Shown: one piece after another, positions 26,444 to 39,940 of the stretch
Numbering within the stretch: the stretch's first letter is position 1
Layout: each line of letters starts with the position of its first letter
Source of the DNA: a phage
Strand: one strand, 5' to 3'
Sequence record: PX104378.1
Length of the DNA stretch: 64,000 nt
Program-made: the position numbers and the translations under genes
The notes under the pieces: generated by a model
The model's input: the letters and a program-made list of their open reading frames with translations, nothing else
What the model was told of the DNA's origin: nothing
The model's database searches: none

Positions 26444-27391
26444 TTACATCGCTAACAGAGAGTCCAGGTCATCCAGATCAGAAGCGGAGGAAGTACCGCC
26501 ACCCAGGTCCAGAGATGCCATCAGATCATCAGCGGAAGAATCGGATGTTGTGCTAGTTGCGGTAGTACCAGCGTCGAATGCATTCATCTGTGCATCGAAA
26601 TCGTCAAGCTGGTTGTTAATCGCTGCCGCAGCACCAGAAGCCGCAGCACCAGCTACCAGGCTTACACCTTTAACTTTCTTAAATTTAGCATCCAGTTCCT
26701 CGAAAGATTTAAACTGGTCTTTTGCTACGATAACATCAATATCTACCATGTTTTCGAACAGATATTTCTGGAATGCTTCATCTTCGATGTTCGGAATCGC
26801 TGATTGCTGCATGAAACGTGAATCATCGTAGTTCAGGAATTTATCTACTTTCTTAGCTTTCAGAAGGAAGTTAGCGCCTTCGAACGGACATACGATGTTT
26901 ACAGGTTTTTCGCCCAATTCCGTGTTTACGTTGCTCATTGCCAGAATCTTATCATAAATTTTCTTACCGAAGCGGTATTTAAATACTTTACCTTCGTTTT
27001 CCGGCGCTTTCGGATCTTTCATTACCAGAATGTTTGCGAAGTAAGAAGATTTACGCTTAACATCTTGATATTCTTTATTGTTGGTGTTGTACAGATCATT
27101 TTCGCTAATGTATTTGCACACAGGGCAAGAATCAAAATCACCGTGGGTGCTAGGGCAGTTTTCCCAATAATACTTACCATTTACTTTGAAAGAATGGTTT
27201 ACAAGGTTGATGATCGGTAAACCGTCTTCGGTGCGTGCTGGAAGAAAACGAATCACCGCTTCACCGTTACCCGCCGCGTCAGTTTTAATCTTCCACTCTT
27301 TCGGATCTTCTTTGGAGAAGCCGTTGCTACCTTTCAGTGCTGCCAGTTGAGCTTGCAGTTTGGAAGAATCTTGACGACGAAAAATGTTCAT
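26444..27391 (-). CDS. 32: ssDNA-binding protein gp32
   Basis: [35 protein letters not shown] and acidic C-terminal tail match recalled T4 gp32; start at MNIF with AGAGG SD. Confidence 0.9.
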
Positions 27392-27433
27392 AATTATACC
27401 TCTTTTATACATTAACTATTAATTTGCTAGACT

Positions 27434-27461
27434 ATTATACAGATTTAAATTTACTTGTCAA
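27434..27461 (-). promoter_or_regulatory. sigma70-type promoter upstream of gene 32
   Basis: TTGACA-N16-TATAAT overlapping the 3' end of gene 59. Confidence 0.5.
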
Positions 27462-28147: not shown

Positions 28148-28417
28148 TTAAATATCGAGAGTGTTGGTCGGTTCGTCGATCACTCCCTTCCTGAGCGTTC
28201 TATTCACTATACATTCTTGTGTGATCTTGTCAATAATGGACACCGGAATATACTTCTGATAGTGACCATATTCTATAGAGTTTTCCTCTACAAACTGAGT
28301 TGTCGCTTCAAGATAAGTCAATCCCTCTTCAACAACCAGTTTTTCGATTGCAAGACCGTTTGCTGTTTTATTCGCGGCTTTTACCGCATGTTCATTAAGC
28401 ATTGAACACCCGATCAT
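28148..28417 (-). CDS. 33: late transcription co-activator gp33
   Basis: YLEATTQFVEENSI and C-terminal PTNTLDI match recalled T4 gp33; N-terminus shorter than T4. Confidence 0.65.
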   Translation of the reverse strand: MIGCSMLNEHAVKAANKTANGLAIEKLVVEEGLTYLEATTQFVEENSIEYGHYQKYIPVSIIDKITQECIVNRTLRKGVIDEPTNTLDI

Positions 28418-28670
28418 AGAGTTCTACCGCTTCATCGCGTTCTGCTTCGAAGGTTTCTCGCTGTTGCTGGTGATACAGTTTAAACAGAATGCCCCACATT
28501 TTACCATCTACGCCTAATTCTTCTTTAGCACGCTGTTTGATCTCTTTGATCTTATCGCCATATGCTTCTTGAATGGTTTTCTGATCGCTGGCTTCTTTAA
28601 TCAGTTGTGCCAGGGTATTTCCGTGCACTGCTTCGTCAAATACTACTTTTTCTTTTTTCTGTTCAGTCAT
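28395..28670 (-). CDS. dsbA: dsDNA-binding protein DsbA-like
   Basis: 91 aa, position between 33 and rnh, helical charged protein; assignment mainly by synteny. Confidence 0.55.
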   Translation of the reverse strand: MTEQKKEKVVFDEAVHGNTLAQLIKEASDQKTIQEAYGDKIKEIKQRAKEELGVDGKMWGILFKLYHQQQRETFEAERDEAVELYDRVFNA

Positions 28671-28674
28671 AATA

Positions 28675-29274
28675 TTAACCCTCTTTAGTCATTAATTGAA
28701 AACCACGTTCAGCTTTTGAGATTTCGCTAGGACTTAAATCGTCACCCACATATTCTAGCATCATTTCTCGGATAATGTCAAGTGCTTTTTCATCACCTGA
28801 TTTTAACTCGAACTCAAGTTCATAATGAGCAGTGTCGCCCAATCCTTCGCCTACTTTGCCATAATAGAAAGTGTCTTTGCACATTTCCACTATACCGCAA
28901 CCCATATCTAGAGTCAATGACTTGCGATATGTCATTACTTGCATTATTGTAGTGATATAGTCGGAGTTTACCCCTAGACTATCAATAAAATGGACGAACT
29001 CATCCCAATTTGAAAATGTCATTTCCTCGCGGTTGAATAGTCCAGATTCATTATCACCCATTTTGACCATGATCTCTGATTTTCGACAGTCAAGTCGTGC
29101 ATAAATTCCTTTTTGACGTAGCGCATGATCTTCGGTATCATAATAAAATTCGTGTTTTAGAATGTTATCACGGTCTACGAGATTGTACCCGTCATACATT
29201 GCTACCCACAAATCACAGATGGTTTCGACGCCAATTTGTGAGTGTGCATAGTATTTTAATTCAAGTTCTTTCAT
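28675..29274 (-). CDS. CYTH-domain (triphosphate tunnel metalloenzyme) protein
   Basis: 199 aa; N-terminal ELELKYY (CYTH EIExK-type motif) and later YELEFELK acidic strand. Confidence 0.5.
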   Translation of the reverse strand: MKELELKYYAHSQIGVETICDLWVAMYDGYNLVDRDNILKHEFYYDTEDHALRQKGIYARLDCRKSEIMVKMGDNESGLFNREEMTFSNWDEFVHFIDSLGVNSDYITTIMQVMTYRKSLTLDMGCGIVEMCKDTFYYGKVGEGLGDTAHYELEFELKSGDEKALDIIREMMLEYVGDDLSPSEISKAERGFQLMTKEG

Positions 29275-29284
29275 GTGTCAACCC

Positions 29285-30232
29285 TTAGAACTCACCAATT
29301 TTCTGCAACATTTTAACTAACGCATTTGTTACAAAATAGTTATAAATTTTACCGCGTGGTGCTGGTTTAGATTTTTCCCATGACTCCAGAATCTGATTCT
29401 GAATATTGTCTGGGATGTAATCGAAATCAATAAGTTCGCGGTTTTCATCAAATCGACGTGCTTCTTCCTCTGTCATCAAAGACTTTGGATCTTCGGCATC
29501 GAAGATTTGCTCTAACCATTTGGTCGCAACTGGTTTAGCTCGTTCACCTTCCAATCGAGAGATAATAAAATCACTACGGCACTTGACAGAAGCTACACCG
29601 TCTTTTGCGTCACCCTTAACACATTTTACCATAAGGTCTTTGTACGGGCTACCGTATTTGCATTTCTTCCATGCTTTTTGTACTGGTGCCCACTGCTTCA
29701 CATTTTTGTATTTGTGCAACTGTGTGTAGTCACCATCGCCGGAGTTGATCAGCACCTGACGACCTTCTACAGAAAACTTTTTAGTTAGCACAGCGATTAT
29801 ATCATCCGCTTCAACTTTGTCAACCTTAATAACGTGATAAGGCATGTTCTCTTTAAACTCTTCGGTGATCTTATTGATCGCAGCAAAGATCATCTCCCAA
29901 TCACGCGGATCTGCGTCTCGTTTTTCCTTACGGTTGCGTTTATAGTAAGGGGCGATATCACGTCGCCAGTAACCTTTGCTTGAATCAAAAGCAAGTACCG
30001 TAATAGGGTATTGCTCTTTGAATTTTGTCATATTATAACGCATGGTGTCAAGAATAAGATGACGGATCATGCCTTCACTAATAGGATCTTCCGGTTTAAA
30101 GGTATGCGAGATAGTAGCAATCATAAGCTGCGACATATCAATCAAATGCACACCTTCCGGTAGTTTATCTTCTGGGTCATCGAAGAAATCATTAAGTGTA
30201 GCGGTAGTTTTTGTAAACGGGTTATACGTCAT
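29285..30232 (-). CDS. rnh: RNase H (5'-3' exonuclease / flap endonuclease)
   Basis: 315 aa; GYWRRD, YYKRNR, VEADDIIAVL, NSGDGDYTQLHKY.NVKQW, IDFDYIPDNI match recalled T4 RNase H. Confidence 0.9.
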   Translation of the reverse strand: MTYNPFTKTTATLNDFFDDPEDKLPEGVHLIDMSQLMIATISHTFKPEDPISEGMIRHLILDTMRYNMTKFKEQYPITVLAFDSSKGYWRRDIAPYYKRNRKEKRDADPRDWEMIFAAINKITEEFKENMPYHVIKVDKVEADDIIAVLTKKFSVEGRQVLINSGDGDYTQLHKYKNVKQWAPVQKAWKKCKYGSPYKDLMVKCVKGDAKDGVASVKCRSDFIISRLEGERAKPVATKWLEQIFDAEDPKSLMTEEEARRFDENRELIDFDYIPDNIQNQILESWEKSKPAPRGKIYNYFVTNALVKMLQKIGEF

Positions 30233-30234
30233 AA

Positions 30235-30420
30235 TTAAGTTCTCTCCACTCTCACAACAACATATTCGCCAAACGAGTTAGATACTTCACGATCATAACC
30301 GTACTTCTCCATAACTCGCAGAATTGCATTGTTTAATTCGGCACGGAAATAATTGTAATCCTTATCTGGGATTCTGTCAACTATCCATTTTGCACCGTCT
30401 GACAAATCAACTTTAACCAT
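30235..30420 (-). CDS. small hypothetical protein (61 aa)
   Basis: ORF directly downstream of rnh. Confidence 0.4.
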   Translation of the reverse strand: MVKVDLSDGAKWIVDRIPDKDYNYFRAELNNAILRVMEKYGYDREVSNSFGEYVVVRVERT

Positions 30421-30458: not shown

Positions 30459-30466
30459 TATAAATA
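30459..30466 (+). promoter_or_regulatory. T4-type late promoter
   Basis: exact TATAAATA about 29 nt upstream of gp34 ATG; AAGGAG SD at 30481. Confidence 0.7.
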
Positions 30467-37171: not shown

Positions 37172-39940
37172 ATGGCAGATTTAAGCAGAATCCAATTTAA
37201 ACGCACTAGCACTAAAGGTCGTCGACCTGATGCTGGTACGATGAATCCGGGTGAGTTGGCGATCAACTTAGCCGACCAATATTTGCTTACTAAAAACGAC
37301 TCAGGTGCTATTATCAATTTAAGTTGTCCTCCGGTGTATGACCGCGATGTTACAATGGCTGGTAAAGTTAAAGGTAATAATTATATCTTAAGTAAAACCG
37401 CTAACTATCTGGAAGATCAGACAGCGCGAGATCTTAACTACTTTGGTGCTTTCCGTACCAATGGTCTTGATGGTTTTCTAGAACTAACGCTAAACGTTCC
37501 TCATTCTTCTGGTGTTCAGCATGGTCGAGGATTTACTTTCCAGTATGGTCACACTGGATCGCGAGTAGAAACCTATGGCTATAATAGAGAAGGTCAAAAA
37601 GCATTCAGCTATAAAATGTATCACGAAGGTGATAAACCAACTCCAGGAGAATTGAACGTTTATAGCAAACAAGAAGTAGATAGAATGTTTGTTAAGAACG
37701 TTAAACTTGCTACAGTTCCTGGTGATACAGTTGAAGGCTATTTTAAATTAGCAACTGCAATGATTCCACAAAATGGTCGTAGTGTATTTTTCCGTATTCA
37801 TGGTGGTAACGGATATAACGTTACTGCATACGATCAAGTTGATATTGTAGAAATTGTTATTCGCAGTGGAAATAATCGCCCTAAAGGTGTTAACGTTATT
37901 GCATATCGCCGAAATACAAACAAATCATTTGATGTTTTGGCTGTTAATACTTCTGGTGATAACTATGATATCTATGTGAAATATCAGCGTTACACTGATA
38001 ACGTTATTGTTGAATTTGGTAAAAGTGTTGATGTTAATCTGGTAGTTCATGACGTTCCAGATTTTGTTGCTGAACGTCCTGCTGGTGATAATGTTATTGG
38101 CGGTCGCGCGGTAACTCTTTTCAACACCGAAAATAAACGTGGTGTGTTGAGTTTTGACGATAACACACAAAATAGCTATGATATTGTTCACTTGAGTAAT
38201 GATAAAGGTACTGGACGAAAATATATTCGTAAATTCCGTAGCAACTATAATGAAATGATCTGGCATGAGACTGTTCAAGGTTCCAGTTATCGTCTGGCTA
38301 CTGGTAGCACTGATGCTCAGGAAATTATGACTATTGAATCTAGTAGCTCAATTGCTGGAACTCATAAAGGTAATATTATTTCTGGTCGTATGCTGTTAAA
38401 TGGCGGATCTAATGCCATTACACTACGCCGACCTGCTGGTCAATCTAATCATATTGCGTTTCAAGATAATCGTACTGGAGATATTACCCGTCAAGGATGG
38501 ATCGGTTATGCAAACGCCGATACTGACGTTTTTGAATGGTATAGTGATGTAGGTGGCAGTTCTATTCGTCAACATATCGACGGACAGATCGAATTTCAGA
38601 CAGGTAACATGAAGCGAGTTTATACCAACGGTCAATTCATTTCTTTATATGCTGATGGCTTCCGTACTGTATATGGTAACTATGGATCATGGTGGCGAAA
38701 TGACGGTAGTAACGTTTATCTGATGAGCACAAAATCAGGCGACGCTATGGGTCCGTGGAATACCTTTAGGCCGTTCATATACAGTCTCGCCAATGGAAAC
38801 GTTACTCTAGGTGGTAGCGATGCTGGCAATCATTTAATGCGTCTCAATAATGAAAATCGTCAAGTAGAAATAAATGCAACAACACATTTAGGGTCTCGAT
38901 TATATTGGGAACGTAGCGAAGGATCGGCATCTAGATTTTTTATTAAGAATTGGGGTAATGGAACTTCTCGCGCTCAAGTGTGGGAACTTGCTGACGAGAC
39001 AGGTTATCATGTATATTCTCAGCGAAACGACGCGGGTGTTCTTCAATTCCGTACTGCTGGTAATTTTGAGACTGGTGGTGATGCTCAAGTAAACGGGACT
39101 TTACGTGTCACCAATGTTCTTCGAACAGATAACCAAATTCAGATTTATCGCGATAACAACAAAGAACTCTGGTTTAAGGATGCTAATGGTACTAACCGTG
39201 GTGTTATCTGGGGTGATAGCACAGGTCAAATGCGCATTCGAAACTATAACAGCGGAGAATTTGACCATGTTTTCCAGACTGGTATGATTCGCTTAGAACG
39301 TGGGTATGCAAACGGTAGCGACCGTGGTTTGATTCGCGGAGAAGTACAAGGTGGTGCTTGGTCAGAATGGAAAACTCGCGCTGCTGGCTTATTGGTTGAC
39401 TGTCCAGCTGCTCAAACTTCCGCATATAACGTATGGAAAGCGACCAAATGGGGTTTAGACCACATCGCGGCAATGGGCGTTCATGTTCCTAGTGGTGTTA
39501 TTACTAATGCTATGGCACGTCTTCATATTCATACCACAAACTTTGACTTTAACGCATCTGGTGATTTCCAAGCTGGTCGCAATGGTAACTTTAACGATGT
39601 TTACATTCGCTCTGATGCTCGCCTGAAAATCAATAAGGAAGAGTATAAGGAGAATGCCACCGATAAAGTTAATCGCTTGACGGTATACACCTATGACAAG
39701 GTTAAATCTTTAACCGACCGTACTGTCATTGCTCATGAAGTCGGTATTATTGCTCAGGATCTTGAAAAAGAATTGCCGGAAGCAGTAACAACTTCTAAGG
39801 TCGGCGATCCTGATAAGCCAGAAGAGATCTTAACAATTTCTAACTCTGCTGTCAACGCTCTTTTAATTAAGGCGTTTCAGGAAATGAGCGAAGAATTGAA
39901 AGTCGTTAAAGCTGAACTAGCGGAACTTAAAAAGAATTAA
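37172..39940 (+). CDS. 37: long tail fibre distal subunit gp37 with C-terminal intramolecular chaperone domain
   Basis: 922 aa; N-terminus QFKRTS..GRRPDAG...GELAINL matches T4 gp37; C-terminal SDARLKINKEE...GIIAQDLEKELPEAV resembles peptidase S74 domain. Confidence 0.8.
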   Translation: MADLSRIQFKRTSTKGRRPDAGTMNPGELAINLADQYLLTKNDSGAIINLSCPPVYDRDVTMAGKVKGNNYILSKTANYLEDQTARDLNYFGAFRTNGLDGFLELTLNVPHSSGVQHGRGFTFQYGHTGSRVETYGYNREGQKAFSYKMYHEGDKPTPGELNVYSKQEVDRMFVKNVKLATVPGDTVEGYFKLATAMIPQNGRSVFFRIHGGNGYNVTAYDQVDIVEIVIRSGNNRPKGVNVIAYRRNTNKSFDVLAVNTSGDNYDIYVKYQRYTDNVIVEFGKSVDVNLVVHDVPDFVAERPAGDNVIGGRAVTLFNTENKRGVLSFDDNTQNSYDIVHLSNDKGTGRKYIRKFRSNYNEMIWHETVQGSSYRLATGSTDAQEIMTIESSSSIAGTHKGNIISGRMLLNGGSNAITLRRPAGQSNHIAFQDNRTGDITRQGWIGYANADTDVFEWYSDVGGSSIRQHIDGQIEFQTGNMKRVYTNGQFISLYADGFRTVYGNYGSWWRNDGSNVYLMSTKSGDAMGPWNTFRPFIYSLANGNVTLGGSDAGNHLMRLNNENRQVEINATTHLGSRLYWERSEGSASRFFIKNWGNGTSRAQVWELADETGYHVYSQRNDAGVLQFRTAGNFETGGDAQVNGTLRVTNVLRTDNQIQIYRDNNKELWFKDANGTNRGVIWGDSTGQMRIRNYNSGEFDHVFQTGMIRLERGYANGSDRGLIRGEVQGGAWSEWKTRAAGLLVDCPAAQTSAYNVWKATKWGLDHIAAMGVHVPSGVITNAMARLHIHTTNFDFNASGDFQAGRNGNFNDVYIRSDARLKINKEEYKENATDKVNRLTVYTYDKVKSLTDRTVIAHEVGIIAQDLEKELPEAVTTSKVGDPDKPEEILTISNSAVNALLIKAFQEMSEELKVVKAELAELKKN

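Follow-up and report, generated by a model that had tools for sequence, protein, structure and literature searches.

The 64,000-nucleotide stretch of phage DNA analysed here (sequence record PX104378.1, referred to below as the window) carries a 199-codon open reading frame (ORF) that spans exactly 28675..29274 on the minus strand in the ORF listing of the window, and whose product belongs to the CYTH or triphosphate-tunnel metalloenzyme (TTM) proteins. The window phage is a Krischvirus of the RB49/Phi1 group, and the gene is the orthologue of RB49ORF244c. With moderate confidence, we read its product as a metal-dependent triphosphate hydrolase of the YgiF lineage with a retuned substrate preference, encoded by an accessory gene and exposing a surface on which a variable host factor exerts selection. 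This reading is built on a catalytic tunnel that is retained but lined differently in every phage copy, and on a protein exterior that differs radically between phages whose flanking genes are nearly identical.

Several searches converge on the family of the protein. The Pfam CYTH model PF01928 scores 28.8 bits over residues 33-191 (E=1.3e-6), above its gathering cutoff of 23.2, and PHROG 14893 is matched at E=7e-134. A profile made of 17 members of the phage family aligns residues 2-196, and thus the whole tunnel domain, with the Escherichia coli YgiF structure 5a60 at E=2.8e-13; the search of solved structures with the single sequence placed YgiF at E=1.1 only, and the match became significant once the family profile was used. 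An AlphaFold2 model with a mean predicted local distance difference test (pLDDT) score of 93.7 displays nine strands and a C-terminal helix. Its best match among solved structures is again 5a60, with a template modelling (TM) score of 0.78, E=3.6e-12 and 22% identity, so that the same structure comes out on top of both the profile and the fold search. The model matches 58 solved structures at E<=0.001, and the top ranks are occupied nearly entirely by tunnel-fold proteins. The single-sequence structure search also returned the TriTu immunity protein 7zhm (E=0.055, residues 21-100), which has no motif support and is taken as a chance match.

No match to a CHAD domain was found, the protein ending at residue 199 right after the helix that plugs the tunnel, and no NCBIfam family model matched even at E<=10. 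The gene product is therefore a stand-alone CYTH/triphosphate-tunnel protein of the YgiF lineage and not an orthologue of YgiF itself. "YgiF-like triphosphatase" is the right name at the family level, triphosphate hydrolysis being predicted from the sequence. A sequence-only reading of the window had proposed a CYTH-domain protein, without naming its strand, on the strength of two acidic stretches, ELELKYY (residues 3-9) and YELEFELK (residues 151-158). Both the family and the motifs were recognised correctly; these stretches hold the invariant ExExK and ExExE ligands. The targets that it suggested, nucleotide second messengers or triphosphorylated RNA ends, are speculative.

In order to describe conservation, 43 phage cluster representatives and 147 cellular relatives were aligned, and the residue numbering was checked against the YgiF residues named by Martinez (2015). 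Eleven residues (E3, E5, K7, R60, K71, R82, E84, R117, E152, E154 and E156) are invariant in 43/43 phage representatives; they align with YgiF E4, E6, K8, R56, K69, R81, E83, R126, E158, E160 and E162, respectively. E3, E5, K7, R60, K71, R82, R117, E154 and E156 are essentially invariant in the cellular set as well. The column of K71 is offset by one residue in a hairpin relative to the cellular sequences. The ExExK motif (E-L-E-L-K, codons 3-7, 29254..29268, minus strand) is shared by all phage representatives and all aligned cellular relatives and comprises, by alignment with YgiF E4/E6/K8, two ligands of metal site 2 (E3 and E5) and the phosphate-binding K7. The stretch Y-A-R-L-D (codons 58-62, 29089..29103, minus strand) holds the catalytic Arg R60, equivalent to YgiF R56, together with D62 at the position of YgiF R58 and Y58 at the position of the thiamine-triphosphatase Trp. 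In E-L-E-F-E (codons 152-156, 28807..28821, minus strand), E154 corresponds to the metal-site-1 ligand YgiF E160 and E156 to the metal-site-2 ligand YgiF E162. One end of the tunnel is closed by a C-terminal plug helix, encoded by codons 186-195 (SKAERGFQLM, 28690..28719, minus strand; helix 187-195 in the model), which aligns with SKAARGYHLA of YgiF; phage proteins and cellular relatives alike conserve its S186, K187, R190 and G191. A lack of the conserved Glu, Lys and Arg residues of the tunnel, named in the sequence-only reading as refuting evidence, is not observed; the phage protein departs from the pattern at one position only, with D62 always in place of the second Arg of RxR.

Published work on YgiF assigns roles to the equivalent residues. 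In that enzyme E4, E6, E160, E162, R56 and K69 are needed, all of which are kept in the phage protein; metal 2 is bound by E4, E6 and E162 and metal 1 by E160, R56 is catalytic and K8 binds phosphate (Martinez, 2015). K71 corresponds to the substrate-binding K69, while R82 and R117 correspond to R81 and R126. Since the metal ligands, catalytic Arg, Lys residues, YxD strand and plug helix are shared, the same two-metal mechanism is expected, and hydrolysis of a triphosphate held in the tunnel is well grounded by homology. By analogy with YgiF and the plant enzyme AtTTM3, E154 would hold a Mg2+- or Mn2+-triphosphate complex at metal site 1, whereas E3, E5 and E156 would hold a second metal that activates the water attacking the terminal phosphate. 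R60 would contact the oxygen that bridges the beta and gamma phosphates, and K7, K71, R82, R117 and K187 would bind the phosphates in a tunnel plugged at one end by the C-terminal helix. The products would be orthophosphate and the diphosphate form of the substrate.

Around this preserved machinery, the lining of the tunnel is altered in a way that is fixed across the phage clade. Position 62 is Asp in 43/43 phage representatives and Arg in 97% of the cellular relatives; in the RxR strand, its counterpart is the second Arg, R58 in YgiF and R54 in AtTTM3. Position 58 is Tyr in 42/43 phage representatives and Ala, Gly or Ser in 88% of the cellular relatives. Further replacements concern position 42 (Glu in phages, Asn in cellular proteins, YgiF Asn38), position 40 (Lys instead of Leu, YgiF Leu36), position 80 (Phe instead of His), position 115 (Thr instead of Phe) and position 150 (His instead of Ile). 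All seven positions point into the tunnel by strand parity, the tunnel-facing assignment being made by this parity together with homology to YgiF and thiamine triphosphatase (ThTPase). Even in the most divergent phage homologues (31-36% identity), K40, Glu or Asp at 42 and Asp or Asn at 62 are kept; Y58 is absent from the two most divergent phages, L041 and L042. No prior report of the Asp62/Glu42/Lys40 signature was found in the literature searched.

Because the tunnel lining is changed in every phage copy, we infer a substrate other than inorganic triphosphate (PPPi). The preferred substrate is probably not simply PPPi and is more likely to be an organic or otherwise different triphosphate, such as a nucleoside triphosphate (NTP), a deoxynucleoside triphosphate (dNTP) or another triphosphate-bearing nucleotide. 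Activity is expected to survive with an altered substrate pocket, since replacement of AtTTM3 R54 by Ala does not strongly inhibit catalysis (Martinez, 2015). Indirect support comes from E. coli, which hydrolyses PPPi mostly via its inorganic pyrophosphatase; this enzyme accounts for the bulk inorganic triphosphatase (PPPase) activity, the share of YgiF is insignificant and PPPi is barely detectable in cells (Kohn, 2012).

The second line of evidence concerns variation in the gene itself. Allele sequences were taken individually from GenBank phages, and nucleotide diversity was followed along 17 Krischvirus copies. Codons 10-150 (28825..29247, minus strand) form a hypervariable allelic cassette with a diversity of 0.18-0.27, whereas the last 49 codons of the gene and most of rnh, dsbA and gp33 range from 0.01 to 0.06. 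The constant 3' part, codons 151-199 (28675..28824, minus strand), is 97-100% identical in nucleotides to all Krischvirus copies. The edges of the cassette are sharp: codons 1-9 and 151-168 are essentially without nucleotide differences, and every block in between varies. Compared with phage Skers and with the metagenomic allele L006, the cassette DNA is only 49-63% identical, against 94-98% for rnh and dsbA. At least five allele classes and a mosaic can be told apart, namely allele A (the window, Phi1 and ECD7), B (RB49 and JSE), C (ELT3, Brandy and JK32), D (Skers) and E (L006 and L008), with GEC-3S as an A/B mosaic. No prior report of such an allelic cassette was found in the literature searched.

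Rates of substitution point to the age of these alleles. Between the closer ones, the ratio of nonsynonymous (dN) to synonymous (dS) divergence, omega, is 0.22-0.52 in the cassette and 0.02-0.10 in rnh. Allele A differs from D or E by a dN of about 0.52-0.56 with dS saturated, while dN in rnh is about 0.01, and from an allele F of another genus by a dN of 0.56 against 0.15 in rnh. Positive selection in situ was rejected as the main origin of the cassette, as its dS is saturated while that of the flanks is approximately 0.1-0.4. Saturated synonymous sites next to such flanks argue instead for the exchange of old alleles by recombination, through which the exterior of the protein would be replaced wholesale between near-identical genomes. 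The cassette edges coincide with the DNA that encodes the invariant ExExK and ExExE motifs; these segments might act as crossover points, being the longest identical stretches between diverged alleles.

What is exchanged is not distributed evenly over the fold. Among the strand positions of the cassette, 19/35 of those facing the tunnel are invariant compared with 1/37 of those facing outward (Mann-Whitney p=2e-5). The enzyme core is under strong purifying selection and the exterior is free, or driven, to change. When the 64-kb window is compared with Skers (median identity 97%), DNA similarity disappears entirely in the cassette and in the tail-fibre genes and nowhere else. In the tail-fibre region, 37200-39900 has low or no blastn similarity to Skers, with no coverage at all across 37801-39300 (about 37.8-39.3 kb). 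A conserved core with a swapped exterior resembles loci of host-phage conflict, which suggests a role in an arms race: selection on the protein surface would come from a host factor that varies, be it a defence sensor or a target, while catalysis stays.

The distribution of the gene is narrow and its position constant. Among 50,697 phage records, it occurs only in 59 Krischviruses, at the same position in all 59 records that carry a Krischvirus-type rnh, and the 2.5-kb region of the window is 90-97% identical to these 59 records; every sequenced Krischvirus has kept the gene, and 58/59 records contain an unbroken full-length match. Three more divergent T4-like phages known from metagenomic contigs (L005, L041 and L042) carry it at the same rnh-dsbA junction, the loci of P0045 and P0058 being among those that show this synteny. 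Relative to the window, the DsbA and gp33 proteins of L005, L041 and L042 are 70-82% identical and the CYTH protein only 31-48%. A scan of IMG/VR with the family alignment yielded 3 loci only. Since most T4-like phages are without it, the CYTH gene is an accessory gene of one T4-like lineage.

Outside phages, the family profile finds 3,302 cellular relatives, many of them stand-alone proteins of about 200 amino acids and many of about 500. The phage clade is isolated: among 1.8 billion representatives searched with its profile, only 3 have a score better than 1e-30. Closest to it among cellular proteins are stand-alone CYTH proteins from Gammaproteobacteria, about 200 amino acids long, which include Photobacterium proteins 35-40% identical to P0044. 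The latter, the nearest bacterial relative (196 amino acids; L003 2858-4187), divergently adjoins genes for a PhoU-like protein and a PHO4 phosphate transporter, a context that hints at a tie between stand-alone YgiF-like enzymes and phosphate handling.

Within the window, the CYTH gene lies in a block of replication genes on the same strand. The upstream neighbour is the 315-codon rnh (29285..30232, minus strand; PF09293 and PF02739; 51% identical to T4 rnh), which encodes the T4-type RNase H/5'-3' exonuclease and is separated from the CYTH gene by 10 nucleotides. Downstream, after 4 nucleotides, follows the 91-codon dsbA (28395..28670, minus strand; PF11126 at E=5e-22; 59% identical to T4 DsbA), encoding the double-stranded DNA-binding protein of late transcription, and then gp33, gp59 and gp32, identified by Pfam and PHROG matches. 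The location between dsbA and rnh and the absence of a T4 gene at this place, both put forward in the sequence-only reading, hold true: the two neighbours are identified by their domains, and in T4 dsbA and rnh are adjacent, 8 bp apart. As read from the sequence, the CYTH gene starts at M1 with an in-frame TGA two codons upstream, and an AAGGG Shine-Dalgarno sequence (29282..29286, minus strand) overlaps the stop codon TAA of rnh (29285-29287). Two opposite-strand ORFs in the region (56 and 63 amino acids) are antisense to the conserved gene and were dismissed as unsupported.

Early co-transcription of the CYTH gene with rnh and dsbA from sigma-70-type promoters is likely, judging from the sites in this region. 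Between 26300 and 30600, 27 sigma-70-like sites were found against 12.3 expected from shuffled sequence; 22/27 are on the minus strand and three are perfect (12/12). This enrichment agrees with the annotation of RB49-type genomes, in which early promoters are numerous. A candidate early promoter leading into the CYTH gene is the perfect site within rnh at 29796..29823 on the minus strand (TTGACA, 16-nucleotide spacer, TATAAT, with TG). Two putative sites score 11/12: one at 28752-28781 on the minus strand in the constant tail of the CYTH gene, about 80 nucleotides upstream of dsbA, and one at 29253-29281 that overlaps the start codon and codons 1-8. Both fall in nucleotide-invariant segments near the two ends of the cassette. 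No T4-type late promoter TATAAATA serves the CYTH gene, the only one nearby (30459-30466, plus strand) preceding gene 34.

The surrounding genes offered some further observations. An ORF of 61 amino acids on the minus strand at 30235-30420, directly upstream of rnh, matches PHROG 3594 at E=1e-30, has no Pfam match and is kept in all Krischviruses compared. The 3' part of rnh contains an isolated 60-nucleotide diversity peak of 0.18 at 29370-29430 among the 17 Krischviruses. The gp32 gene (26444-27412) is 81-83% identical in DNA to the Krischviruses compared, with 77% identity to Skers in the bin 26701-27000, whereas genes 59, 33 and dsbA are 96-99% identical. In Skers, FL20, G2494 and Makalu_002, genes 59 and 32 are separated by a gene for an HNH homing endonuclease (comparison loci L001 5802-6398, L017, L018 and L021), the place occupied in T4 by segG; in the window the gp59-gp32 intergenic segment (27413-27457) is without an endonuclease gene and a perfect sigma-70-like promoter is found there instead, at 27461-27434.

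Several considerations weigh against a retuned hydrolase with a host-selected surface. The exchange of Arg for Asp and of Asn for Glu could reduce activity instead of altering specificity, Y58 may make up in packing for the loss of Phe115 (Thr in phages), and the tunnel-facing assignment comes from strand parity and homology to YgiF and ThTPase, not from measured geometry. Two isolates carry changes in the gene: in G2494 (L018 2001-2596) a frameshift near codon 59 breaks it into two ORFs, and in FL20 (L017) Leu replaces the otherwise invariant Arg117 (R117L). Either these are sequencing errors or they reflect loss of function; both are likely to be damaging and would then indicate that the gene is dispensable, at least in the laboratory. 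Omega in the cassette stays below 1, so that positive selection over the whole gene is not demonstrated, and relaxed constraint combined with recombination could explain much of the variation. Finally, the literature searched contained no enzymatic or genetic study of this protein, and neither PADLOC (no defence model at E<=10) nor NCBIfam offered a match.

Alternative explanations were considered. The protein could be a plain PPPase or short-chain polyphosphatase doing the job of YgiF, which would remove PPPi or polyphosphate during infection, for instance PPPi set free by host dNTPases, with the variability of the gene as neutral mosaicism. We consider this unlikely, though worth keeping in mind: the closest relative YgiF is a relatively specific Mg2+-dependent PPPase, the entire catalytic set is retained, the stand-alone P0044 adjoins PhoU and PHO4 genes, and some GenBank records label the gene "inorganic triphosphatase". 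Moreover, dNTP triphosphohydrolases release PPPi (PMC6511015) and include anti-phage dGTPases (10.1101/2021.04.26.441389), a candidate context that no evidence links to the CYTH protein. However, Asp takes the place of a phosphate-binding Arg in 43/43 phage representatives and an extra Glu stands opposite, which leaves less positive charge for the anionic PPPi; the inorganic pyrophosphatase of E. coli is already the main PPPi hydrolase, with little PPPi to be found (Kohn, 2012); and neutral mosaicism leaves unexplained why, relative to Skers, only the cassette and the tail fibres lose all similarity in 64 kb. A more specific role for a retuned tunnel would be that of a counter-defence or defence-sensed enzyme, one that destroys a triphosphate-bearing nucleotide of host immunity or stress signalling, for instance an alarmone, a non-canonical dNTP or a linear ppp-oligonucleotide, and whose exterior would be swapped among deeply diverged alleles because host factors recognise or inhibit it. 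We put this forward tentatively, as a possibility that would sooner fail than hold. The Clover system of enterobacteria with its triphosphate-bearing signal p3diT provides a candidate context, without evidence linking it to the CYTH protein, and no paper in the literature searched ties the CYTH protein to phage counter-defence. If this were true, an enzyme locus would be subject to the same kind of arms-race pressure as the tips of tail fibres.

Other explanations are less probable still. The position 10 nucleotides downstream of rnh, with a ribosome-binding site over the rnh stop codon and in a replication block with 59 and 32, would suit an RNA 5'-triphosphatase taking the gamma phosphate off lagging-strand primers, which are RNase H substrates, or off host or phage transcripts whose decay it would alter; Cet1-type and viral capping RNA triphosphatases are distant tunnel-fold matches, and a substrate that extends into a nucleic acid chain might be accommodated by the lower positive charge at one end of the tunnel. 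Such a role is improbable for a protein of the CYTH/YgiF rather than the Cet1 branch, which matches capping enzymes with TM scores of about 0.45-0.5 only and conserves the plug helix closing one tunnel end. As T4 and most T4-like phages replicate without the gene, it does not belong to core primer processing. Equally hard to believe is that the protein is not an active enzyme and serves as a sponge or decoy for triphosphates or nucleotides, or is the product of a gene drifting to loss. The loss of a substrate-binding Arg, the frameshift or R117L in two isolates and an evolution faster than that of the neighbours (31-48% identity against 70-82% for dsbA and gp33) could be so explained. Yet alleles only 31-58% identical all keep the four metal ligands and the catalytic Arg, conservation is far stronger at tunnel-facing residues than on the exterior, the gene is unbroken in all but one of the 59 records, and a sponge would not need a water-activating metal site.

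The enzyme type named by the sequence-only reading, a triphosphatase or a class IV adenylate cyclase, can be narrowed to its first half, a YgiF-type triphosphatase by prediction. A class IV (CyaB-type) cyclase making cAMP or another cyclic nucleoside monophosphate, and thereby reprogramming the host or disturbing cyclic-nucleotide signalling, might be considered on the grounds that these cyclases belong to the CYTH superfamily, that some plant tunnel enzymes have a weak cyclase side activity and that several GenBank records label the gene "adenylate cyclase". Class IV cyclases, however, need HF four residues before ExExK (HFxxxxExExK) and have lost the central Arg (Vogt, 2021). The phage protein begins M-K-E-L-E-L-K, with only M-K before the motif and the upstream in-frame TGA blocking any extension, and the central Arg, a small neutral residue in cyclases, is kept as R60 in all sequences. 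The cyclase structures 3n10 and 2fjt rank 27th to 44th among the fold matches, with TM scores of 0.48-0.50. YgiF itself is a Mg2+-activated, Ca2+-inhibited and fairly specific PPPase with no detectable cyclase activity (Kohn, 2012). The impossible HF motif, the retained R60 and the weak fold match leave the "adenylate cyclase" labels unsupported, and we regard this activity as very improbable. Thiamine triphosphatases carry WxRxR (Vogt, 2021) where the phage protein has YxRxD, with Tyr as the aromatic residue and the last Arg replaced by Asp. Stacking of a substrate by Y58 in the manner of ThTPase was down-weighted, since the exchange of the cellular Phe115 for Thr suggests a packing swap and Y58 is missing from L041 and L042.

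The family identification was correct but not new, and the novelty implied at the outset was overstated. Nolan et al. (2006) already listed RB49ORF244c with a CYTH match, and the GenBank record of RB49 bears the note "similar to ... ygiF", citing HI1598, so that the gene was flagged in 2003 and 2006. Our search of the literature (phage CYTH enzyme, ygiF and phage, Krischvirus triphosphatase) found no functional study. The useful correction to existing annotation is that of a YgiF-type hydrolase rather than an adenylate cyclase. The interest of the gene lies in an active-site difference fixed across a whole clade and in a conserved tunnel with an exchanged exterior, in a comparison with Skers in which the tail fibres are the sole other region of the window to lose all similarity. 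This combination is in keeping with an interaction of the protein with host factors that vary. The physiological substrate of YgiF-type enzymes is not settled (Kohn, 2012); if a phage copy showed a phenotype, it could help to define that substrate.

Altogether, the phage protein can be placed among several known systems that share parts of its architecture. It is closest to the tunnel domain of E. coli YgiF (5a60/5a61; cluster 1 of the CYTH sequence similarity network of Vogt, 2021), with which it shares the ExExK and ExExE ligands, the catalytic Arg, the Lys residues, the YxD strand and the SKAxRG helix. It differs in its length (199 amino acids without CHAD domain, against 433 for YgiF), in the exchange of Arg58 for Asp, Asn38 for Glu, Leu36 for Lys and a small residue for Tyr58, in the location of its gene within a replication and late-transcription block and in an exterior with extreme allelic variation. 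The stand-alone gammaproteobacterial CYTH proteins (the H. influenzae HI1598 type, Photobacterium and P0044) have the same single domain of about 200 amino acids at about 30% identity, with ELKSGD and SKAERGY in common; unlike the phage copies, they keep RxR and the Asn and Leu of the neighbouring strand and are encoded on chromosomes, in the case of P0044 beside PhoU/PHO4.

More distant are the class IV adenylate cyclases (Aeromonas CyaB and YpAC-IV; 2fjt and 3n10), members of the same superfamily that share ExExK and the acidic strand, from which the phage protein is set apart by the missing HF motif, the central Arg and a TM score of only 0.48. The mammalian 25-kDa thiamine triphosphatase (5a64 and 3bhd) shares the tunnel fold and the plug helix, and likewise has an aromatic side chain two positions ahead of its catalytic Arg: W53, which stacks the organic part of the substrate, there and Y58 here. 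The TM scores are 0.57-0.64 at 15-17% identity, and the last Arg of the motif is Asp in the phage protein. Tunnel-fold proteins are also present in other viruses, among them uncultured Caudovirales, Aeromonas phage 65.2 and D3 and the mRNA 5'-triphosphatases of giant viruses; CYTH triphosphatases are scattered in jumbo phages, where NTP degradation has been suggested (Iyer et al., 2021). These viral proteins reach a TM score of at most 0.54 and an identity of at most 16%, occur in other contexts and stand outside the rnh-dsbA clade.

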